The notes under the pieces are model-generated. The model did not search any database, was not told the DNA's origin, and saw nothing but the letters and a program-made list of their open reading frames with translations. The position numbers and the translations under genes are program-made. This document shows positions 1-11,758 of a stretch of DNA of 24,833 nucleotides, one piece after another; position 1 is the stretch's first letter; every line of letters starts with the position of its first letter. The stretch is from a virus: the UHGV virus genome UHGV-0067666; one strand, 5' to 3'.

Positions 1-9
1 TTAGCAAGG

Positions 10-29
10 TTGTGTACATTTGTACACAA
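10..29. promoter_or_regulatory. Perfect inverted repeat TTGTGTACA-tt-TGTACACAA upstream of the TetR-family gene; candidate autoregulatory operator
   Basis: 9-bp arms with 2-bp spacer seen directly, ~20 bp upstream of the ATG at 50; TetR regulators commonly bind palindromes in their own promoters. Confidence 0.45.
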
Positions 30-49
30 TTGCAGAGAGAGGAAATGAC

Positions 50-586
50 ATGCGTCGCGCTAACGATCCGCAACGGCGAGAAAAAATTATCCAGGCCACG
101 CTGGAGGCGGTGAAACTTTACGGAATACATGCTGTTACGCACCGCAAAATTGCTACCCTTGCCGGGGTACCGTTGGGATCGATGACCTACTATTTTTCAG
201 GAATTGATGAGTTGTTGCTGGAGGCGTTCAGCAGTTTTACTGAGATTATGTCCCGGCAATATCAGGCATTTTTTAGCGATGTTAGTGATGCTCAAGGCGC
301 ATGCCAGGCTATCACCGATATGATCTACAGCTCACAGGTTGCAACGCCGGATAATATGGAGCTGATGTACCAGCTCTACGCGCTGGCTAGCCGAAAACCG
401 CTATTAAAAACGGTAATGCAAAACTGGATGCAGCGCAGTCAGCAAACGCTCGAACAATGGTTTGAACCCGGAACCGCCCGCGCGCTTGATGCGTTTATTG
501 AGGGGATGACGCTGCATTTTGTCACCGACCGTAAGCCGCTATCGCGCGAGGAGATTTTGAGGATGGTTGAGAGGGTTGCAGGGTAG
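50..586 (+). CDS. rcdA: TetR-family transcriptional regulator (host gene, RcdA/YbjK-like)
   Basis: ORF 20..586 trimmed to ATG at 50 behind GAGAGAGG RBS; N-terminal HTH region typical of TetR proteins; sequence recalled as E. coli YbjK/RcdA, symbol from memory only. Confidence 0.8.
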
Positions 587-603
587 TAGATAAATTTTAG
601 ATA

Positions 604-631
604 ACAAAAAACCCATTTATGTAAATGGGTT
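604..631 (-). terminator. Rho-independent terminator on minus strand (hairpin AACCCATTTA/TAAATGGGTT followed by T-run on minus strand)
   Basis: Perfect 10-bp inverted repeat at 610..631 with A6 at 604..609 on plus strand (U-run on minus); downstream of the minus-strand 89-aa gene and integrase. Confidence 0.5.
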
Positions 632-637
632 AATGAA

Positions 638-669
638 AACAATAAGTTAGATTAAAAACAATAAGTTAG
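638..669. repeat. Direct repeat AACAATAAGTTAG x2 (638..650 and 657..669) in the host-prophage junction; candidate integrase arm or att-associated site
   Basis: Two identical 13-mers 19 bp apart seen directly, between host gene end and prophage genes. Confidence 0.4.
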
Positions 670-736
670 GTTGGTGGTCAGTGGTGGTTATTACGGGGTA
701 ATGCCAACCGCTGCCGCCACTTTGTCGCCACTTGTT

Positions 737-1006
737 TTACCTTAGACGCCAGGGGCCTCTATCTTCAATCTGTTCGACTAACCCCTCCTCTTCTAGTTCA
801 CGCAATAGTGCAACAACCCAATATTGTTGGTTCGAACTTGTTGCTTTCCGTTTTTCTCCCCAATCGAGGCCGCTTAGACGAAATACCTCAGCTTGCTTAA
901 CGCCGTTGCCGTTTTTTTGGGCATCTGGGTGAGTTTTAAGTACGGATAAAGCCAATTCTTTGGCTCTGTTGCGCAATTCCGCTCCCTGATGCTGAAACTT
1001 ATTCAT
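737..1006 (-). CDS. Hypothetical 89-aa protein downstream of integrase (possible winged-helix protein)
   Basis: ORF with GGAG RBS 9 nt upstream of ATG; co-directional with int; no family recognised with confidence. Confidence 0.55.
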   Translation of the reverse strand: MNKFQHQGAELRNRAKELALSVLKTHPDAQKNGNGVKQAEVFRLSGLDWGEKRKATSSNQQYWVVALLRELEEEGLVEQIEDRGPWRLR

Positions 1007-1064
1007 TGATAGTGCTCCATGTGAAAAAAAAGAATATTAGCTCAACAGGGCAAAATACGCATTT

Positions 1065-2096
1065 TCAAAAACTTGCTATTGATGTTGGTAGTGTTGCCAG
1101 CGGATTAAACCGTAATGCAGTTTCCAGGTGATCCGGTGCCAGATGTGCGTAACGCATAGTCATTTTTATATCGTGGTGTCCGAGAATTTTTTGTAAGGCC
1201 AGAATGTTTCCACCCGACATCATGAAGTGCGCCGCAAACGTATGGCGCAGAACGTGTGTCAGTTGACCGCGAGGGAGCACGATAGACGTTTTTTCCATCA
1301 CGGATAAAAATTGAAAATAGCAGTCTGTAAAGAAATTGAACCCATCAAGCGCCATGATCTCTTCGTAAAGCTCTTTACTGATAGGGATGCTTCTGTTTTT
1401 CTTCCCCTTCGTTCTTACAAAGGTAATTCGGTATTTGGTCACCTGTGAGCGGGTAAGATTTACGGCTTCACGCCAACGTGCGCCTGTGCTTAAGCATATC
1501 TTAACTACCAGTGCCAGAATTGGGTCCTGACGTTTGCAATCAGCCAGCAATTCAACAATCTGCTCATGGGTAAGCCATGCCATCTCTTTTTCTGCGATGG
1601 TGAATTTTCGCATGTTCTCCAGTGGGTTCGGATACGACCATTCGCCCAGACGGGATAGTTCGCTAAAAACACTACTTAGATAGCTTTGCTCCAGGTTAAT
1701 GGTGACCGGGCTTGCTCCTTTCTTCCATTTCTCGCTGAAGTAGATCTCGCCTGTCAGGCGTTTATCTCGATAGTGGGCAAACATTTTAGAGGTGAGATCG
1801 GTTGCAAGAGGATTGCCCAGAGCGTCAACCATCAACAGCAATTTGTCATAGACATGCTGCCCAGCTGTCAGAGATTTACCATGTAGTTTGAACCATAGTT
1901 CAACCACGTCTTTCAGTGTTCGACGATCCACTGATTCACCCAGCCAGGGCTTTGCTTCGGTTTCTTCCATCGTGTGGCGCTCAAAAGCCAGAGCTTCGCC
2001 TTTGGTGGCGAATTGTTTACGCACACGACGCCCACTACGTCCGGCGGGGTAACATTCGCAAAGCCATTTTCCTGTGGTGAGTTTTCGTACTGCCAT
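1065..2096 (-). CDS. int: Tyrosine site-specific integrase, P2/186 Int family
   Basis: ORF 1065..2174 trimmed to internal ATG (MAVRKLTTGKW...), matching the conserved P2-type Int N-terminus; C-terminal catalytic region with R...HxxR...Y pattern (LRHTFAAH, MRYAHL). Confidence 0.9.
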   Translation of the reverse strand: MAVRKLTTGKWLCECYPAGRSGRRVRKQFATKGEALAFERHTMEETEAKPWLGESVDRRTLKDVVELWFKLHGKSLTAGQHVYDKLLLMVDALGNPLATDLTSKMFAHYRDKRLTGEIYFSEKWKKGASPVTINLEQSYLSSVFSELSRLGEWSYPNPLENMRKFTIAEKEMAWLTHEQIVELLADCKRQDPILALVVKICLSTGARWREAVNLTRSQVTKYRITFVRTKGKKNRSIPISKELYEEIMALDGFNFFTDCYFQFLSVMEKTSIVLPRGQLTHVLRHTFAAHFMMSGGNILALQKILGHHDIKMTMRYAHLAPDHLETALRFNPLATLPTSIASF

Positions 2097-2282
2097 AAAA
2101 AATGCCCTCCAATAGAGAGCATTTTTACTGTATGTATAACCAGTGTCAATGTATGAAATCTTGCGACCATACATCTCACTGAAGCCATAATGAAGTTGGC
2201 TATTTTTTGCTATGTGAGTATGTAACTTTTGCGGTTAGCCTGCGGCTCATTGTTATATTAGGCGCAGATATAAAAGCAAAGT

Positions 2283-2474
2283 TTATCGTGATTTTTTAGT
2301 ACAGATTTTTTTGGATTTACTAATAGTTCCATCATTGCAAACAAATTTTCCATCGGAGGTACAGTGAGATACACCACCCTTTTTCCCAGAACAAGGATAA
2401 TTTTTAGCATAGGTAGTTAGTGGGCTTAATAACAAAGAGCATGATAAAACCACAAAAAATACTTTACCAAGCAT
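2283..2474 (-). CDS. Small secreted cationic cysteine-containing peptide (signal peptide plus ~40-aa Lys-rich mature region with 4 Cys)
   Basis: GGAGG RBS 8 nt upstream of ATG; N-terminal hydrophobic signal with AxA-like site (TYA-KN); AT-rich codon usage; lies between cI and int. Confidence 0.6.
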
Positions 2475-2489
2475 AGTTTCCTCCCGGTA

Positions 2490-3059
2490 TTATCTAACAT
2501 ATTTAACTGTTAAACTTATAATTTTTCCAATTATTTCAACATCTTCTATCTTGCAGTCGAAGGCTCTGTTTCCACCTTCAACGAAGATTCTTCCACCGGG
2601 TAAACGAGTAATGTCGCGGATTGTTATCTCGCCATCAATACTTATTACCCATTTACCATCACGTATATCATCAAATTCTTTATCACAAATAAATTCAGAA
2701 TTGTTATCTGTGATGACAAAAGGTTTTTTAAACGTAGAGGGTAGAAATCCCTTATCAAAAATATAAAAACCGTCTTCACGCAAGGCACCATCAGATAATA
2801 CATATTTAGCAACTTCCATAGTATTTGTATTACCTGAAGTTTGCTTTGAACCATGTCCAGTTGTGAGCCAATTAAGCGAGGTGCCCGTTTCAAGGGCGCA
2901 CTGGATTACCCATTCTGCTGGGAATGAGTCACGCATGTAGCGTGTGGCGAGTGTACTTTTAGAGATTCCTAAATGATCGCACAACGCCTGTCGAGTTTTG
3001 AATCCATAAGCTTCTACCATGCGCTCTATAGCGCCTCGTCCGCCTTTCTCCAAATTCAT
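2490..3059 (-). CDS. cI: Prophage repressor, phage 186 CI-like (N-terminal HTH, C-terminal oligomerisation domain)
   Basis: ATG at 3059 behind GGAG RBS; ~190 aa, HTH segment TRQALCDHLGISKSTLATRY; position between int and a divergent apl-like gene as in 186. Confidence 0.75.
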   Translation of the reverse strand: MNLEKGGRGAIERMVEAYGFKTRQALCDHLGISKSTLATRYMRDSFPAEWVIQCALETGTSLNWLTTGHGSKQTSGNTNTMEVAKYVLSDGALREDGFYIFDKGFLPSTFKKPFVITDNNSEFICDKEFDDIRDGKWVISIDGEITIRDITRLPGGRIFVEGGNRAFDCKIEDVEIIGKIISLTVKYVR

Positions 3060-3083
3060 GGTCACTCCAAGTGAACTTTTATC

Positions 3084-3112
3084 TTGACGATTTCACTGTG
3101 CGATCGTATGTT
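3084..3112 (+). promoter_or_regulatory. Putative rightward early promoter (TTGACG -17 bp- TATGTT) in the cI/apl divergent region
   Basis: Sigma70-like hexamers with 17-bp spacer seen directly; lies between the divergent repressor and excisionase-like genes. Confidence 0.35.
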
Positions 3113-3184
3113 TATGATGTTCACAAAATACAAACGATCCGTATTCGTCCTGATTAATCATCATTAAACGAGGAATGTTGCATC

Positions 3185-3406
3185 ATGAGACCTAACATTT
3201 CAATCACTCTTACCACGCCTCATGTGACTATTGAACGCTATAGCGAGCTGACAGGGCTGTCCATCGATACCATCAATGACATGTTGGCTGACGGACGCCT
3301 TATCCGTCACCGTCTGCGCAAAGATAAAAAACGCGAAAAAGTGATGATCAACATAGCAGCCATGACCGTTGATGCGCTTTCAGAATGCAATCTAAACCTT
3401 AATTAG
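3185..3406 (+). CDS. apl: Small HTH DNA-binding protein, Apl/Cox-like excisionase/repressor of lysogenic promoter
   Basis: 73-aa ORF divergent from cI, first gene of the rightward operon; HTH-like segment [18 protein letters not shown]; symbol assigned by position. Confidence 0.55.
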
Positions 3407-3438
3407 TTCGATTCTGAAATACATCAGAGGCATTGACC

Positions 3439-3948
3439 ATGTTTGATTACCAAGTTTCCAAACATCCACATTTTGATGAAGCCTGTCGTGCATTCGCACT
3501 GCGCCACAACCTGGTGCAACTGGCAGAACGTGCAGGCATGAATGTGCAGATTCTGCGGAACAAGCTGAACCCAGCTCAACCTCATTTATTAACCGCACCA
3601 GACATCTGGCTGCTTACCGATCTGACTGAGGACTCAACACTGGTAGATGGTTTTCTGGCACAGATTCATTGTCTGCCATGTGTTCCGATTAATGAGGTGG
3701 CAAAAGAGAAACTGCCGCATTACGTCATGAGTGCAACTGCAGAGATAGGACGTGTCGCGGCAGGTGCGGTTTCTGGCGATGTAAAAACCAGTGCAGGCCG
3801 TCGTGATGCGATCAGCAGCATTAACTCTGTAACACGACTGATGGCGCTGGCTGCTGTTTCATTGCAGGCCCGTTTACAGGCTAATCCTGCGATGGCGAGT
3901 GCAGTTGATACCGTGACTGGCCTCGGTGCTTCATTCGGTTTGCTGTGA
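3439..3948 (+). CDS. cII: CII-like lysogeny establishment activator (186 CII-like)
   Basis: ATG at 3439 behind AGAGG RBS; 169 aa; HTH near N-terminus; position directly after apl as in 186. Confidence 0.65.
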
Positions 3949-3955
3949 GGTGCTT

Positions 3956-4156
3956 ATGCTGACGAAAGAACCATCATTTGCATCGCTGCTGGTAAAACAA
4001 AGTCCGGCAATGCACTACGGTCACGGCTGGATCATGGGGGAGGATGGTAAACGCTGGCATCCGTGCCGTTCACAAGATGAATTGCTGGCAGAACTATCTA
4101 CGAAAAAACGGGGGAACAAATGGCTATTGAAGGCGCTGCGGCGACTGTTCCATTAA
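3956..4156 (+). CDS. Small early protein (Fil-position ORF)
   Basis: ATG at 3956 preceded by GAGG; ORF 3926..4156 in the track; function unknown. Confidence 0.4.
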   Translation: MLTKEPSFASLLVKQSPAMHYGHGWIMGEDGKRWHPCRSQDELLAELSTKKRGNKWLLKALRRLFH

Positions 4157-4461
4157 GCCCCGGTGAACGCCTGAGTGGACTTAATCACATAGCGGAATTA
4201 AGGGCAAAAGTTTTTGGCCTGAATATTGAGTCAGAGCTTGAGCGGTTTATTAAAGATATGCGTGATCCACGGGATATCAATAATGAACAAAATAAACGGG
4301 CACTGGCTGCTATATTCTTTATGGCAAAAATTCCGGCTGAACGTCATAGCATCAGCATTAATGAGCTGACCACTGACGAAAAGCGGGAGCTGATTAAAGC
4401 AATGAATCATTTTCGTGCAGTGGTGAGCTTATTTCCCAGACGGCTAACCATGCCGAATTAA
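4120..4461 (+). CDS. Hypothetical early protein, 113 aa
   Basis: ORF with ATG start, overlaps the 3' end of the previous ORF in another frame; no recognisable motif. Confidence 0.4.
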   Translation: MAIEGAAATVPLSPGERLSGLNHIAELRAKVFGLNIESELERFIKDMRDPRDINNEQNKRALAAIFFMAKIPAERHSISINELTTDEKRELIKAMNHFRAVVSLFPRRLTMPN

Positions 4462-4528
4462 CCAACTAATGAAATTAATGGCGTAAACCCGCCGGGCATC
4501 CCTTTATCTAAATTCAGGAGAATTGATT

Positions 4529-4762
4529 ATGCGTAATATTGAAACCCTCACGACTAAAACCGGACCGGATGACGCAGGGCTTAATATTTTACTGACAGAG
4601 GCTCGTCTGGAAGAACGCCGGGCAAGGGCTGAAGCAATGGCAGCTCGCCTTGATCGCCTGGCGTGTCATATCACATCCCGCCAGCTAAACCACGTCGAAG
4701 CGGCAGAACTGCTGCGTGTGACCGCTGAAGCAATCCAGAACGAAGCGCAGGAGATCCACTAA
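4529..4762 (+). CDS. Hypothetical early protein, 77 aa
   Basis: ATG at 4529 with AGGAG RBS 8 nt upstream; stop overlaps start of next gene (TAATG). Confidence 0.5.
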   Translation: MRNIETLTTKTGPDDAGLNILLTEARLEERRARAEAMAARLDRLACHITSRQLNHVEAAELLRVTAEAIQNEAQEIH

Positions 4763-4989
4763 TGGCTGATGCAATGGATCTCGTACAGCAGCGCGTTGAA
4801 GAAGAACGCCAGCGCCATATCCGTGCTGCCCGTGCCAAAACACCGGGCGTGTCTCGCGTGCTTTGTATTGAATGTGAAGCGCCAATTCCGCCAGCACGCC
4901 GCCGCGCCATTCTAGGAGTGCAGCTTTGCATTACCTGCCAGGAAATCGCAGAGCTGAAAGGTAAACATTACAACGGAGGTGCTGTATGA
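4762..4989 (+). CDS. TraR/DksA-family C4 zinc-finger protein
   Basis: CIECEAP...(17 aa)...CITCQ pattern (CxxC-x17-CxxC) in a 75-aa protein; translationally coupled to flanking genes. Confidence 0.7.
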   Translation: MADAMDLVQQRVEEERQRHIRAARAKTPGVSRVLCIECEAPIPPARRRAILGVQLCITCQEIAELKGKHYNGGAV

Positions 4990-5843
4990 GCACCATCCTG
5001 AAATGGGCGGGAAATAAAACCGCCATTATGTCCGAACTGAAAAAATACCTTCCTGCTGGCCCGCGACTGGTTGAACCTTTCGCGGGTTCTTGTGCTGTGA
5101 TGATGGCGACGGATTACCCCAGCTATCTGGTTGCGGATATTAATCCTGATTTAATCAACCTCTATAAAAAGATTGCCGCTGATTGCGAAGCGTTTATATC
5201 TCGTGCCAGAGTTTTATTTGAGGAAGCAAACAGTGAGCTGGCTTATTACAACATAAGACAGGAGTTTAATTACTCAACTGAAATTACTGATTTCATGAAG
5301 GCGATATATTTCCTGTATCTCAATCGTCACGGTTACCGTGGTTTATGTCGCTATAACAAGAGCGGGCATTTCAACATTCCCTACGGTAATTATAAAAATC
5401 CGTATTTCCCTGAAAAAGAAATTCGCGCATTTGCAGAGAAAGCCCCGCGGGCAACGTTTATCTGCGCGAGCTTTGATGAAACGCTGGCGATGTTGAAGGC
5501 GCGGGATGTGGTGTATTGCGATCCGCCTTATGACGGTACGTTTTCCGGCTATCACACTGATGGTTTCACTGAAGATGACCAGTATCACCTGGCATCCGTT
5601 CTTGAACATCGAGCATCTGAAGGACATCCGGTCATTGTTTCTAACAGTGACACATCCCTGATCCGTTCGCTGTATCGCAATTTCACTCACCACTACATCA
5701 AGGCAAAACGCAGCATCGGCGTGTCGGCTGGCGAGAGTAAATCTGCAACAGAAATCATTGCTGTTTCCGGGGCGCGCTGCTGGGTGGGATTTGATCCTTC
5801 GCGTGGCGTGGATAGTTCTGCTGTGTACGAGGTGCGTGTATGA
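4986..5843 (+). CDS. dam: DNA adenine methyltransferase, Dam-like (orphan N6-adenine MTase)
   Basis: N-terminal KWAGNK and EPFAGS motifs (AdoMet binding), catalytic DPPY motif; ATGA overlaps with both neighbours. Confidence 0.9.
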
Positions 5844-8260
5844 GTCATGCCGATATGAGCGACTCTAGCGGCTTTAACGAGGCCGCTGCAGCATTTTCAT
5901 GGAACGGCCCGAAAAAGGCCATTAACCCTTATCTGGACCCGGCGGAAGTTGCGCCGGTTTCTGCGCTTTCAAACCTGATCACTCTGTACGCTACCGATAA
6001 CGAGCAGGAACAACTGCGCCGCGAGGCACTGAGTGATCAGGTCTGGGAGCGTTATTTCTTTAATGAATCCCGTGATCCTGTCCAGCGCGAAATGGAGCAG
6101 GATAAGCTCATTAGCCGGGCAAAGTTGGCGCATGAGCAGCAGCGTTTTAACCCGGACATGGTCATTCTGGCAGACGTCAGCGCCCAGCCCTCCCATATCA
6201 GCAAGCCGCTGATGCAACGTATTGAATACTTCAGCAGCCTGGGCAGGCCAAAGGCTTATTCCCGCTATTTACGTGAGACGATTAAGCCATGTCTGGAACG
6301 ACTGGAGCATGTACGCGACAGCCAGCTATCTGCATCTTTTCGTTTTATGGCAAGCCATGTAGGGCTGGACGGCCTGCTGATTCTGCCTGAAATGAGTCAG
6401 GATCAGGTGAAACGCCTGTCTACCCTTGTCGCTGCGCATATGAGCATGTGCCTTGACGCAGCTTGTGGTGATTTGTATGCCACCGATGACGTTAAGCCAG
6501 AAGAAATCCGCAAGACATGGGAAAAGGTGGCAGCGGAAACCCTGCGTCTGGATGTCATCCCGCCTGCGTTTGAGCAACTCCGTCGGAAAAGAAACCGCCG
6601 TAAACCCGTGCCCTATGAACTCATTCCGGGTTCGCTGGCGCGTATGTTGTGCGCCGACTGGTGGTACCGGAAATTATGGAAAATGCGTTGCGAATGGCGG
6701 GAAGAGCAGTTGCGTGCTGTCTGCCTGGTCAGCAAAAAAGCATCTCCCTATGTCAGCTATGAAGCCGTGATGCATAAACGTGAGCAGCGCCGCAAGTCAC
6801 TGGAGTTTTTCCGTTCTCATGAACTGGTGAACGAAGAGGGCGACACGCTGGATATGGAAGACGTGGTAAACGCCAGCAGCAGCAACCCGGCGCACCGCCG
6901 CAATGAGATGATGGCCTGTGTTAAAGGTCTGGAGCTTATCGCGGAAATGCGCGGTGACTGCGCCGTTTTCTACACCATTACCTGTCCGTCACGTTTCCAT
7001 TCTACGCTCAATAACGGCAGACCAAACCCAACCTGGACAAATGCGACGGTAAGACAAAGCAGCGATTATCTGGTCGGCATGTTTGCTGCATTTCGTAAGG
7101 CGATGCACAAAGCCGGGTTGCGCTGGTATGGCGTGCGGGTGGCTGAGCCGCATCATGACGGTACAGTTCACTGGCACCTGTTGTGTTTCATGCGCAAAAA
7201 AGACCGCCGCGCCATTACTGCATTGTTGCGTAAGTTTGCCATCCGTGAAGACCGCGAGGAACTGGGTAATAACACTGGTCCACGCTTTAAATCTGAGCTG
7301 ATAAACCCGCGCAAAGGTACGCCAACAAGCTACATCGCGAAATACATCAGTAAGAACATTGACGGGCGTGGTCTGGCTGGCGAGATCAGCAAGGAAACGG
7401 GTAAATCCCTGCGTGATAACGCTGAATACGTTAATGCCTGGGCGTCTCTGCATCGTGTTCAGCAATTCCGCTTCTTTGGCATTCCGGGGCGTCAGGCTTA
7501 CCGTGAACTGCGATTGCTGGCTGGTCAGGCGGCAAGGCAGCAGGGTGACAAAAAAGTAGGTGCGCCGGTACTGGATAACCCGCGCCTTGATGCAATCCTG
7601 GCTGCTGCTGATGCTGGTTGTTTTGCCACCTACATCATGAAGCAGGGCGGCGTACTGGTTCCCCGCAAATATCACCTCATCAGAACTGCTTATGAAATCA
7701 ACGAAGAGCCGACCGCCTATGGCGATCACGGTATTCGTATTTATGGCATCTGGTCACCCATTGCAGAGGGCAAGATCTGCACTCATGCGGTGAAGTGGAA
7801 AATGGTTCGTAAGGCCGTTGACGTTCAGGAGGCGGCAGCCGACCAGGGCGCTTGCGCCCCTTGGACTCGGACTCGTGGCAATAACTGTCCCCTTGCTGAA
7901 AATTTGAACCAACAAGGGAAAGACAAATCAGCTGATGGGGATACCAGAACGGATATCACCCGCATGGATGACAAGGAGTTGCACGATTACCTGCACAGTA
8001 TGAGCAAAAAAGAGCGCCGGGAACTGGCAGCAAGATTACGCCTGGTTAAACCGAAACGGCGTAAAGACTACAAACAGCGAATTACAGAGTATCAGCGTCA
8101 GCAGCTCGTCTATGAACTGAAGTCCAGAGGATTTGATGGCAGCGAGAAAGAGGTCGATTTGCTCCTTCGCGGTGGCAGTATTCCGTCAGGAGCAGGCCTG
8201 CGTATCTTCTATCGGAACCAGCGTTTGCAGGAAGATGATAAGTGGCGGAACCTGTATTAA
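5840..8260 (+). CDS. A: Replication initiation protein A (rolling-circle nicking endonuclease, P2 gpA family)
   Basis: 806 aa; HWHLL metal-binding motif and YIAKYISKN tyrosine motif typical of P2 A-type initiators; position after early operon. Confidence 0.9.
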
Positions 8261-8968: not shown

Positions 8969-9688
8969 ATGACAACTATTAACAAGCATGGGTTATCTAG
9001 AACAATTCCTGAACCTGTAAAACTGGAGGTAAGGCAGCGCTGTGGCTTTGGTTGCGTTGTTTGTGCTTCTCCCATTGTTGAGTATGAGCATGTAATTCCC
9101 ACATACGCTGATGCAAAGGAGCACTCTCCAAATGCAATAGCACTACTTTGTCCTACGTGCCATGCGAAAGTAACGAAACGTCTTTACTCTAAAGAGAAAA
9201 TAATTAAAGCAATGGAATCTCCTGCAGCCTTACAAAAAGGGAATGTGGCCGATATATTGGACTTTTCTGATAGGCATCCAACAATAATATTTGGTGGTGC
9301 GACGTTTGAATCCTGTACTGTACCAATAATGTTTCAAAATGAGCCATTGTTAACCATTGAAAAAGAAAATAATGCTTTTCTTATTTCGGGTAAATTTTAC
9401 GATAGTCAAGGTATTGTTAATCTTGAATTAATTAAGAATGAGTGGGTTTGTAGTGCAAGGCATTGGGATGTTCAGGTTGTTGGTCCTAGAATAACTATTA
9501 TAGAAAAAAGGAAAGGTCCTCGTTTAATTATTAAAGTTGATGCGCCTGAAAGATTGATTGTGGAAAGATTAGATATGTTGGTTAAGGGGACTCGGATTGT
9601 AGGAGACGAACACAAGCTAAGAGTAGGTCCACATCAATTTCACAATTGTGGAGTTTCAAATTGCAATATTGGTTTCTGCTTTGGCTAA
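8969..9688 (+). CDS. HNH-endonuclease domain protein with uncharacterised C-terminal domain (~150 aa)
   Basis: N-terminal CGFGCVVC...EYEHVIP...NAIALLCPTCHAK, a CxxC...EH...N...CxxCH HNH signature; AT-rich codon usage unlike the neighbouring backbone. Confidence 0.7.
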   Translation: MTTINKHGLSRTIPEPVKLEVRQRCGFGCVVCASPIVEYEHVIPTYADAKEHSPNAIALLCPTCHAKVTKRLYSKEKIIKAMESPAALQKGNVADILDFSDRHPTIIFGGATFESCTVPIMFQNEPLLTIEKENNAFLISGKFYDSQGIVNLELIKNEWVCSARHWDVQVVGPRITIIEKRKGPRLIIKVDAPERLIVERLDMLVKGTRIVGDEHKLRVGPHQFHNCGVSNCNIGFCFG

Positions 9689-9889: not shown

Positions 9890-9991
9890 CGCGCGCTAAC
9901 TCATAAATCCTAGATTATTAGTGGATTTATCTCATTGAAATGTGCACTATTCCCAGCATTGAGTTGTACCAGATGTCTTTATGGAGGGACT

Positions 9992-11758
9992 GTGGCTTTT
10001 GTAACTGATATTCGGCTTGAAGATAATGCTATTGCTGCACCTGCGACAGCACAGGTTATGGCTCAGAGGCTAGGATCTGTATTACGTAAGAGATATGAAG
10101 AATTCATCCATAAAAGAGAGTGTGCACCAGGCCAAGCAGACTATGATGTAAAAATGGCTAGCAGGGCTTTAGCTGCATTCACTATGTATCAGTTAGGATG
10201 TGTGGATGATAAGTATGCAGGGGAGTCTGTATGTGATAGTAGTGAAGATGGTGGTATAGATGGAATAGCAATCAACCATAACGAAAAAATCGTTGTTGTT
10301 GTTCAATCAAAATTTCACCAATCGGGAAACGGCACTTGGACAAGAGCCGATTTTATGTGTTTTAAGGATGCTTGTGAGAAGCTACAAAGTGAAAGATACG
10401 AATTATTTGATTCCATATTGCAAAATAAAAGCGGGGAAATAAGTGCGGCTTTAAGTAGTTTTGAATACAAGTTCATCTTTGCGATGGCGCATACAGGTAA
10501 AAAAGGTGCTGCAGAGGAAATATTAAATGATATGCGGGAATGGCAATATCAATTAAACGCTGCAGCTTTTACACCTGAGGATGAGCCTAAAGAGAACTGG
10601 GGATTTCAGGTTCATTTAATATCCTCTGAAGATATGATGCATTGGTTACAGAATGGCTCTCGAAATCAAATTGATCTTAACAGGGTTGAAATTGAGCGTT
10701 TTGGATTTTTGAATGAACCATATCAAGCTTTTTACGGGGCTATTAGTGGTGATCAAGTTGCAGAATGGTGGGAAGAGCATGGTGCTCGATTATTTACAAA
10801 AAACATAAGGAATATGCTTGGTAAAACAGAAGTGAATGAGGAAATAAAAAAGACAGCTATAGATAATCCTGATATGTTTTGGTTTTATAATAATGGGATT
10901 ACTGTACTGGTTAAGGAAGTTGTTCCTCATAGACGAAACGCAGCTCCTAATATAGAGAGAGGGATTTTTGATTTTCGTGATGTAAGTGTCATTAATGGTG
11001 CACAAACAGTCAGTAGTATTGGCGCATGTAAAGATGCGCTTGGTGAAAACATATATAGACTCAAAGTGCCAGCTAGATTCATTGTTATAGATGATGATAC
11101 TGATAATTTAACTGCAAATGCAATTACAAAAGCTAACAATTTCCAAAATAGAGTATTGGGAAGAGATTTTGCATCGCAGCAGGCAGATCAACATAGATTG
11201 GCAAGGGAGTTAGTGCTTGAAGGATATCAATATCAGTTACTAAGAACAGATGAAGATCATTCACAGACAAATACGAAAGTCATTGACTTGGATGAGGCGC
11301 TCAATGCACTCGCATGTTTAAGTAAAAATAATACGGTTGTATCGACACTAAAATCAAATCGCGGTAGGTTTTTTGAAAATTTTGAAGGCTCTCTATATAA
11401 AACTATTTTCAATCCAAGATTAAGTGGTTTAAAACTTATCAATACTGTTCTACATTTTAGAGTTATAGATAAGTTGATCGGTAAAACATTACTATCAGTA
11501 GATAAAACGACCCATAGTCGCAAGCATTTAATTATTACGCATGGTAATAGATACTATGCGTCTGTACTATTGAGCAACGTTTCTGGGATACATAATAGCT
11601 CAGAAATTCTTGTTCCAGATGAAAAAAATCTTTCCGAAGAATTAAGTGCATTAATTCAACGTGCTGAAGAGTACATTGAAGATAATTACCCGAATGCCTA
11701 TCCGGCAAGATTTTTTGCAAATCCAACGAAAATACAAGAGTTATACGATAATGTTTAA
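9992..11758 (+). CDS. AIPR-like (abortive infection phage resistance family) protein with N-terminal PD-(D/E)xK-like nuclease motif
   Basis: ORF 9935..11758 (TTG); likely start GTG 9992 behind GGAGGG, or ATG 10058; motif DGGIDGIAINHNEKIVVVVQSKF resembles a D...(E/Q)xK nuclease core; later NGITVL and INGAQT motifs recalled as AIPR-typical; AT-rich. Confidence 0.65.
   Translation: MAFVTDIRLEDNAIAAPATAQVMAQRLGSVLRKRYEEFIHKRECAPGQADYDVKMASRALAAFTMYQLGCVDDKYAGESVCDSSEDGGIDGIAINHNEKIVVVVQSKFHQSGNGTWTRADFMCFKDACEKLQSERYELFDSILQNKSGEISAALSSFEYKFIFAMAHTGKKGAAEEILNDMREWQYQLNAAAFTPEDEPKENWGFQVHLISSEDMMHWLQNGSRNQIDLNRVEIERFGFLNEPYQAFYGAISGDQVAEWWEEHGARLFTKNIRNMLGKTEVNEEIKKTAIDNPDMFWFYNNGITVLVKEVVPHRRNAAPNIERGIFDFRDVSVINGAQTVSSIGACKDALGENIYRLKVPARFIVIDDDTDNLTANAITKANNFQNRVLGRDFASQQADQHRLARELVLEGYQYQLLRTDEDHSQTNTKVIDLDEALNALACLSKNNTVVSTLKSNRGRFFENFEGSLYKTIFNPRLSGLKLINTVLHFRVIDKLIGKTLLSVDKTTHSRKHLIITHGNRYYASVLLSNVSGIHNSSEILVPDEKNLSEELSALIQRAEEYIEDNYPNAYPARFFANPTKIQELYDNV

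Follow-up and report, generated by a model that had tools for sequence, protein, structure and literature searches.

A YdcA-family gene for a small, predicted periplasmic protein between the repressor and integrase genes of a 186-like prophage

YdcA of Escherichia coli K-12 is a 57-amino-acid (aa) predicted periplasmic protein without an assigned function (PMC11340327), and its family was described as 'poorly characterized' in a 2026 paper (PMC13541209). Dis2 (Lpg0823) of Legionella pneumophila is located near the outer membrane and is built of two similar lobes with five disulfides (PMC8486379). In the Vibrio phage K139, the operon pL-cI-orf2-glo-int includes glo, which is annotated as 'periplasmic protein; involved in phage exclusion' and has been termed the 'K139 family immunity gene' (PMC4870250). 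In phage 186 the cI stop codon abuts the int start codon and orf69 follows; its record annotates the promoter pL, the CII-activated promoter pE and a terminator of the lysogenic operon. P2-like phages are known for morons and defence hotspots, as exemplified by old, tin and fun(Z) of P2. The present analysis concerns a 63-codon gene at positions 2283-2474, minus strand, of the UHGV virus genome UHGV-0067666, a stretch of 24,833 nucleotides (nt) that is called the window throughout. This is almost certainly a genuine gene for a YdcA-family mini-protein, and it lies between the repressor and integrase genes of a 186-like prophage. It is real, conserved and of a catalogued family of a functionally uncharacterised kind; prophage morons are common, and the gene is not strange in kind. 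Its features are as follows.

2283..2474, minus strand: YdcA-family gene, 63 codons plus stop (open reading frame, ORF; matches to NF007463, PHROG 6000 and a PF27300 cluster; RefSeq coding sequence, CDS)
2480..2485, minus strand: Shine-Dalgarno sequence GGGAGG, 5 nt before the ATG and inside the 15-nt cI-ydcA spacer (read from the sequence)
2406..2474, minus strand: predicted signal peptide, codons 1-23, with a predicted signal peptidase I cut after Ala23 (n/h/c regions, -3/-1 rule)
2286..2405, minus strand: predicted mature 40-aa domain with 4 invariant Cys and a net charge of +8 (alignments, purifying selection, beta-hairpin in the AlphaFold2 (AF2) model, apparent Dis2-lobe resemblance)

Assignment to the family was based on several independent resources. 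The protein scored 113.5 bits against the NCBIfam model NF007463 (PRK10040.1-2), for which the cutoff is 93, with residues 5-63 aligned to positions 1-58 of the 58-position profile, and it matched PHROG 6000 with an E-value of 9e-34. In a large protein database PF27300, which the gene tables name 'YdcA', was precomputed on the 94%-identical cluster representative and on nearly every homologue; the exact window protein is a member of a PF27300-labelled cluster of 355 members and is present on ~1000 contigs. A Pfam release predating PF27300 returned only a noise match for the 63-aa protein (GULLO2-like_3rd, E = 0.068). At 50% identity the family forms 444 clusters (in a set of 1.84 billion representatives), and at 90% it forms 913. 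The window protein has the YdcA layout, with a Sec leader, a single domain of ~35-40 aa and a total length of ~57-63 aa, and it contains the motifs PCSGxKGG and FVCNDGxIS.SK together with the four invariant Cys. In the family alignment (A1) 14 positions were invariant (P27, C28, S29, K32, G33, G34, C38, F44, C46, G49, S52, S54, K55 and C58), and the mature-only alignments (A2 and A4) agreed with these positions. The initial annotation had recognised no family; on these models and the homology search, the family is YdcA.

The closest named relative, E. coli K-12 YdcA (b1419), shares the Sec leader, the core PCSGxKGG[VI]SHC...SKKxC with 4 invariant Cys and the size range of 57-63 aa, and both proteins are predicted to be periplasmic. 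The K-12 protein is 57 aa long and is encoded on the chromosome beside rydC and hokB, whereas the window copy is prophage-borne, accompanies cI, is AT-rich and is more cationic (+8 versus ~+5 by our count). Against NF007462, the other, 57-aa PRK10040 model, which may be the model for K-12 YdcA, the window protein scored 67.5 bits and thus fell under the cutoff of 118, while K-12 YdcA scored under the cutoff of NF007463, the model fitting the phage copy. By these cutoffs the two belong to distinct subfamilies. The 'ydcA' genes of plasmid pS88 and of the gonococcal genetic island are different genes, and a Bacillus gene of the same name appears to be a different gene as well. The UniRef cluster name 'conjugal transfer protein' found no support, since relatives occur on just 12 of 72,556 plasmids, and those 12 are mostly non-mobilisable.

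The alternative that the ORF is spurious, unexpressed or decayed, for example as a piece of a larger gene, could be entertained because the ORF is short and AT-rich and because the homologous ORF is unannotated in the HP2 and Acinetobacter phage records. By our own arithmetic, the chance that a random 63-codon stretch stays open at 33% GC is ~0.008. The RefSeq annotation of the identical locus contains the same CDS (WP_072005502.1). The 15 nt from the cI stop codon (TAA, 2490-2492) to the ATG of the YdcA-type gene read TACCGGGAGGAAACT, and the GGGAGG within them is a strong Shine-Dalgarno sequence at optimal spacing. The GC content of the gene is 0.33, within a tract of 33-36% GC at ~2100-2800 that reaches into cI and covers its C-terminal half; the AT-richness thus extends beyond the YdcA-type gene. 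In comparison with the copies of two sister prophages (L006 and L011), the 35 codons of the mature core had 18-20 synonymous and 3-5 non-synonymous differences, while the leader had diverged freely; this surplus of synonymous changes shows that the mature core is under strong purifying selection. Such a pattern, taken together with the homology, means that the ORF is more than a product of chance. Full-length family members are equal in size, and the number of family clusters also speaks against a spurious ORF. The refuting condition named in the initial annotation, a pseudogenised fragment of a larger protein, does not apply, since family members are typically ~56-69 aa and single-domain. With the NF007463 score above the curated cutoff, alignment A1 and the codon-difference pattern, a spurious ORF is effectively refuted, and next to no credence is left to it.

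The conservation of the core is seen against a diverged background. Nucleotide identity between the window and the sister prophages is ~72% in the diverged cI-YdcA segment, in which the C-terminal domain of CI is far more diverged (~55% identical by our count). When the window is compared with phage HP2, the CI proteins are 32% identical and the YdcA cores ~75% identical (the core figure being our count).

The leader consists of the n-region MLGK, a 12-residue hydrophobic core and the c-region SPLTTYA, with T at position -3 and A at position -1, and the predicted cut coincides with the switch from variable to near-invariant positions in alignment A1. The predicted mature peptide of 40 aa contains 4 Cys, 9 Lys and 1 Arg versus 2 Asp, for a net charge of +8 and an isoelectric point of 9.75. 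The AF2 model of the protein is a beta-hairpin with a mean predicted local distance difference test (pLDDT) score of 77-79. Export, cleavage and disulfide formation are strongly indicated. The initial annotation had described an AT-rich gene of 63 codons with an excellent ribosome-binding site and a signal peptide followed by a mature peptide of ~40 aa with 4 Cys and a charge of about +8, and all of this was borne out by the ORF, its GC content, GGGAGG, the leader architecture and the computed composition.

A fifth Cys (C12) is located in the leader, following a short hydrophobic stretch (VLS-C), and it could be taken as the lipidation site of an outer-membrane lipoprotein of the receptor-blocking type represented by Cor and Llp. 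This identity was rejected because Cys12 is not conserved across alignment A1, several homologues having no leader Cys at all. In addition, the Leu at -2 is non-canonical for a lipobox, the h-region before Cys12 is just 7 residues long, and an AXA-type site is conserved at the boundary between the variable and conserved parts. The conserved lipobox Cys at the leader end of the exclusion lipoproteins Cor and Llp is missing in the YdcA-type protein, and a lipoprotein is accordingly regarded as highly unlikely.

Searches of known structures led to a single protein. The family profile matched Legionella Dis2 (7MUC/7MUD, chain AN) in the Protein Data Bank (PDB) with an E-value of 1.3e-5. This value is partly driven by the signal peptide, because with the mature-only profile Dis2 was still the top match but at E = 0.12, beside noise from low-density lipoprotein (LDL) receptor class A domains. 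In a Foldseek search of the AF2 model against 350,542 chains, 7MUD_AN and 7MUC_AN ranked first and second (probability 0.96, next 0.07; 38-39% identity across 38-39 columns), and when the mature profile was compared with the Dis2-lobe sequence, hhalign gave a probability of 89% and an E-value of 2e-6. A Dis2 homologue bears a faint PF27300 match; the search for Dis2 homologues started from a 46-aa fragment and returned two truncated proteins, too few for a profile. With moderate confidence, then, the Dis2 lobes are YdcA-like domains, and if so the family gains a location and a disulfide state that have been seen experimentally. Each lobe of Dis2 bears the pattern C-[CS]-x-K-x-GG[VI]-x-x-C...G-x-x-VCN[DN]G-x-x-S, and Dis2 has a signal peptide, is rich in disulfides and is positioned just under the outer membrane. 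Dis2 has two tandem lobes and five disulfides in 124 aa, whereas the window protein has a single lobe with 4 mature Cys; Dis2 is also a stoichiometric part of the type IVB secretion system (Dot/Icm), whereas the window protein is encoded in a phage. No gene of a type IV secretion system (T4SS) was found among the annotated window ORFs, which are P2/186-type phage genes with annotation to ~12 kb.

Domain fusions were surveyed in the 59 YdcA-family representatives that reach 100 aa or more, and the partner domains recognised by Pfam were Endonuclease_NS (3 representatives), SNase (1), PLDc_2 (1), PBCV_basic_adap (2), VasL (1) and DUF4124 (1), and several family proteins have 2-3 tandem YdcA domains. 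Every enzymatic partner is thus a secreted nuclease, and three unrelated superfamilies are represented. The YdcA domain of each nuclease fusion directly follows the signal peptide, and these architectures were confirmed by precomputed Pfam tables. The SNase (thermonuclease) fusion has the order signal peptide-YdcA-SNase and is located at 4001-4669 of L108, a 37.6-kb P2-like phage contig (JGI 3300050156), where its neighbours are the genes for gpD, gpU and the tape measure together with a divergently oriented HTH_36 regulator; its product may be a periplasmic nuclease carried by the phage. A second homology search, with the mature profile, yielded single-domain proteins only among its best 120 matches.

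As a separate observation, five YdcA-family proteins of 101-137 aa from metagenomes or Herbaspirillum (P0056, P0057, P0059, P0061 and P0101) contain a second basic Cys motif, C.C......C.GPRGG.YC, which Pfam scored as a PBCV-specific basic adaptor domain in 2 representatives.

The gene order around the YdcA-type gene was obtained from ORFs, a domain search and the RefSeq annotation of the identical locus. The window opens with E. coli rcdA (20-586, plus strand), and a 186-like prophage of the P2 family follows. The remaining features of the minus-strand unit are these.

2490..3059, minus strand: gene for a 186-type CI repressor, directly upstream and on the same predicted transcript (Phage_CI_repr, 2.8e-33; Phage_CI_C, 1e-28; RefSeq)
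3175..3203, minus strand: candidate pL promoter, TTGAAA-17-CAACAT (weak match to the consensus; identified by position only)
2097..2282, minus strand: 186-nt spacer between the YdcA-type gene and int (blastn mapping, gene tables)
1065..2096, minus strand: integrase gene, downstream in the lysogenic operon (Int_N and Phage_integrase domains; RefSeq)
737..1006, minus strand: ORF of 89 aa that follows int, where phage 186 has orf69 (RefSeq CDS)

On the plus strand beyond cI there are an Apl-like gene, cII, fil, a Dam methylase gene and the replication gene A. The window thus shares the frame of phage 186, except that the YdcA-type gene and the 186-nt spacer separate cI from int. Because cI abuts int in phage 186, the YdcA-type gene counts as inserted into the lysogenic operon of pL. 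The offsets of the candidate pL from the apl start codon exactly match those of the annotated pL of phage 186, and the cI-int interval of the window showed no minus-strand terminator. Given the 186-like frame and a pL-like site at the equivalent position, the gene is very probably co-transcribed, and hence co-expressed, with cI in the lysogen. An Rfam scan of window positions 1-6000 found nothing. The 89-aa ORF, which is probably the last gene of the lysogenic operon, had no significant Pfam, PHROG, NCBIfam or PADLOC match. The initial annotation had placed the gene inside the cI-int transcription unit and regarded it as a lysogenic-conversion gene; the order cI-YdcA-int in a pL unit like that of 186 agrees with the former, and the insertion in that unit has the character of a moron, in keeping with the latter.

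In the sister enterobacterial prophages the order is cI-YdcA-KAP NTPase-int. The KAP P-loop nucleoside triphosphatase (NTPase) of L006 and L011 (443 aa, 5198-6529) matches the PADLOC candidate PDC-S20 (1e-171), and the ~107 nt at window positions ~2186-2292 have no counterpart in these prophages, which have the NTPase gene there instead. The int gene is 92% identical to that of a sister prophage, versus ~72% for the cI-YdcA block. The window cI itself is a mosaic, with the N-terminal 60 residues of its product identical to those of the sister CI and the C-terminal domain ~55% identical. In cI the AT-rich tract spans the C-terminal half, and it also spans the YdcA-type gene, as if both move as one cassette.

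Homologues were found in other phages and in bacterial chromosomes. In the Haemophilus phage HP2, the start codon of a YdcA homologue of 60 aa overlaps the cI stop codon (ATGA), downstream of the annotated pL, and HP2-like prophages of H. influenzae have the same order: the YdcA homologue, a secreted tRNA_anti-like OB-fold protein and int. The OB-fold protein, HP2 orf1(S) (L003 3112-3876; L014-L018 5193-5957), has 254 aa, a signal peptide and a tRNA_anti-like OB-fold (PF12869, 2.8e-13), and is a second exported product of the HP2-like lysogenic operon. The Acinetobacter phage Ab11510-phi contains an unannotated 61-aa YdcA-family ORF (L005 3420-3605). In siphoprophages of A. baumannii (L019-L022), the YdcA gene is a moron between the tail-tube/assembly genes and the tape-measure gene; this moron island is variable and also contains a DUF4236 gene, a DUF4258/HTH pair, a Ser/Thr kinase and a TonB_C-like protein. 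Phages of Moraxella catarrhalis have the homologue in the late region, and the copies of Atlantibacter and K-12 are chromosomal and outside prophages. In IMG/VR, 521 viral contigs encode a YdcA relative. Window positions 2100-3100, comprising cI and the YdcA-type gene, match 728 of 5426 complete E. coli genomes (~13%), 592 of which cover at least 80% of the segment. The YdcA ORF is unannotated in the HP2 record NC_003315, as is the matching stretch of a phage S2 fragment. For annotation, this means that the window gene can be assigned to a named family, while the HP2, S2 and some Acinetobacter records are without the equivalent ORF.

The function of the YdcA-type gene can be suggested only weakly, and the reading that we tentatively favour, as a possibility short of being probable, is that the peptide protects the envelope of the lysogen from incoming DNA or phage. 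According to this proposal, the gene would be transcribed together with cI from pL in the lysogen and translated from its own ribosome-binding site, with no intervening terminator, and by analogy with 186 it may be expressed further from the CII-activated pE during establishment. After export and cleavage behind Ala23, the peptide would form two disulfides in the periplasm, and on that side of the envelope it may serve as a polycationic module for binding; its partner could be DNA in transit or an entry structure close to the outer membrane. The lysogen would thereby be shielded from incoming DNA or phage, which is superinfection exclusion in the broad sense. Exclusion is favoured because K139 uses the same operon slot for Glo, because the sister prophages put a candidate defence NTPase beside the gene, because the nuclease fusions, like the secreted OB-fold neighbour in HP2, point to periplasmic DNA, and because Dis2 would put the fold beneath the outer membrane. 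The initial annotation had suggested a periplasmic exclusion factor, and with glo in the same slot this appears to be a reasonable reading. What the gene shares with glo is a periplasmic product and a place after cI and before int in the pL operon of a Peduoviridae phage. Glo has 137 aa and no Cys-knot-like cationic domain, and the parallel does not go beyond position and compartment. The cargo of P2-like phages offers another comparison: the YdcA-type gene is likewise an AT-rich accessory gene at a permissive junction that varies between similar prophages, and in the sister prophages its slot additionally contains the NTPase, a PADLOC candidate for defence. Unlike that cargo, it depends on the cI transcript, without a separate promoter or terminator, and its product is a small exported protein rather than a cytoplasmic enzyme and is not listed in PADLOC.

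A number of observations weigh against exclusion. Homology to K139 Glo was rejected (hhalign probability 0.1), the 63-aa protein had no match in PADLOC-DB 2.0, and of the 140 deposited phage records with a 186-type cI, only HP2 and S2 were recovered by the tblastn search for YdcA relatives. The nuclease fusions come from rare metagenomic clusters with 1-3 members each, and one of them looks frameshifted; their YdcA domains are much less cationic, being near neutral by our count, and fusion to a nuclease suits an anchoring role as well as DNA binding. Copies that are chromosomal and not associated with phage exist in K-12 and Atlantibacter, and a reported stress phenotype of ydcA in K-12 points to host physiology (PMC7642389). 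The literature search found no paper giving YdcA a function.

The main rival of exclusion is therefore a role in host fitness, in which the gene would confer tolerance of envelope or acid stress in the periplasm, as chromosomal YdcA may do, with no role against phage or DNA. It draws on the family shared with K-12 ydcA, on the existence of non-prophage chromosomal copies, on the sensitivity of an E. coli W ydcA deletion to 300 mM 3-hydroxypropionate (PMC7642389) and on YdcI-dependent induction at pH 5, which the same authors cite (PMC7642389). We consider it somewhat less likely than exclusion, as the phenotype in E. coli is a single report with no mechanism, the phage copy and K-12 YdcA are distinct subfamilies by the model cutoffs, and neither the nuclease fusions nor the repeated capture by four phage lineages nor the placement in defence-gene slots would be explained. 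A wider version of the DNA-directed idea treats the YdcA domain as an extracytoplasmic module that binds DNA or DNA-entry sites and intercepts foreign DNA in the periplasm, with Dis2 as a co-opted duplicate. In prophages of Proteobacteria, whether naturally transformable or not, the domain would be deployed from the lysogeny operons, alone or fused to periplasmic nucleases; the foreign DNA would be superinfecting phage genomes or transforming or conjugating DNA, and Legionella would have taken a duplicated copy, Dis2, as a T4SS component. This generalisation is rather improbable as a whole.

The resemblance to Dis2 could also be read without any exclusion, the protein being a Dis2-like structural adaptor on an outer-membrane machine (a secretin, T4SS, pilus or Tol-Pal) that serves the phage cycle, for instance in lysis or DNA exit, or that decorates such a machine. 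The Dis2 lobes do appear to resemble the domain, Dis2 is a 13-copy stoichiometric component of the Dot/Icm outer-membrane cap, and in Moraxella and Acinetobacter phages the gene is among late or tail genes. In 186-like and HP2-like phages, however, it is in the lysogenic and not the lytic operon; the annotated window ORFs include no T4SS gene, and the scarcity of relatives on plasmids, mostly non-mobilisable ones, provides no link to conjugation machines. An adaptor role is consequently regarded as quite improbable. A secreted antimicrobial or bacteriocin-like peptide that harms competitors, in line with the antimicrobial-like peptide of the initial annotation, is very unlikely and found no support. 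Its small size, net charge of +8 and four Cys do give the peptide a defensin-like composition, but it has a Sec signal alone, which ends in the Gram-negative periplasm, and there is no adjacent exporter, immunity or processing gene, the neighbours being cI and int. The other lineages have phage or defence genes beside it, the chromosomal K-12 paralogue is without an immunity gene as well, the closest relative of solved structure is an intracellular protein with a structural role beneath the outer membrane, and the domain is found fused to enzymes and as tandem repeats.

For K-12 YdcA, a periplasmic protein of orphan function, the slot behind the repressor, the apparent likeness to the Dis2 lobes and the restriction of enzymatic fusions to nucleases provide first testable hypotheses. 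If exclusion or DNA interception is true, the window gene would encode a very small constitutive periplasmic defence or conversion factor whose module matches ~13% of complete E. coli genomes.

Other parts of the window contained further sequences of interest. A direct repeat, aacaataagttag ... aacaataagttag, is located at 640-680, just past rcdA and near the presumed left junction (attL), and may be an arm-type sequence for Int or one related to att. Between the replication gene A and the ORFs past ~11.8 kb, the plus strand encodes a 239-aa HNH-domain protein (8969-9688) and a 607-aa AIPR-domain protein (9935-11758; PADLOC AbiU, 7e-25), and these two genes are probably abortive-infection or defence cargo. 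If the ORFs past ~11.8 kb are the P2 portal/terminase genes, the AIPR/HNH site would be the classical old/tin cargo slot.

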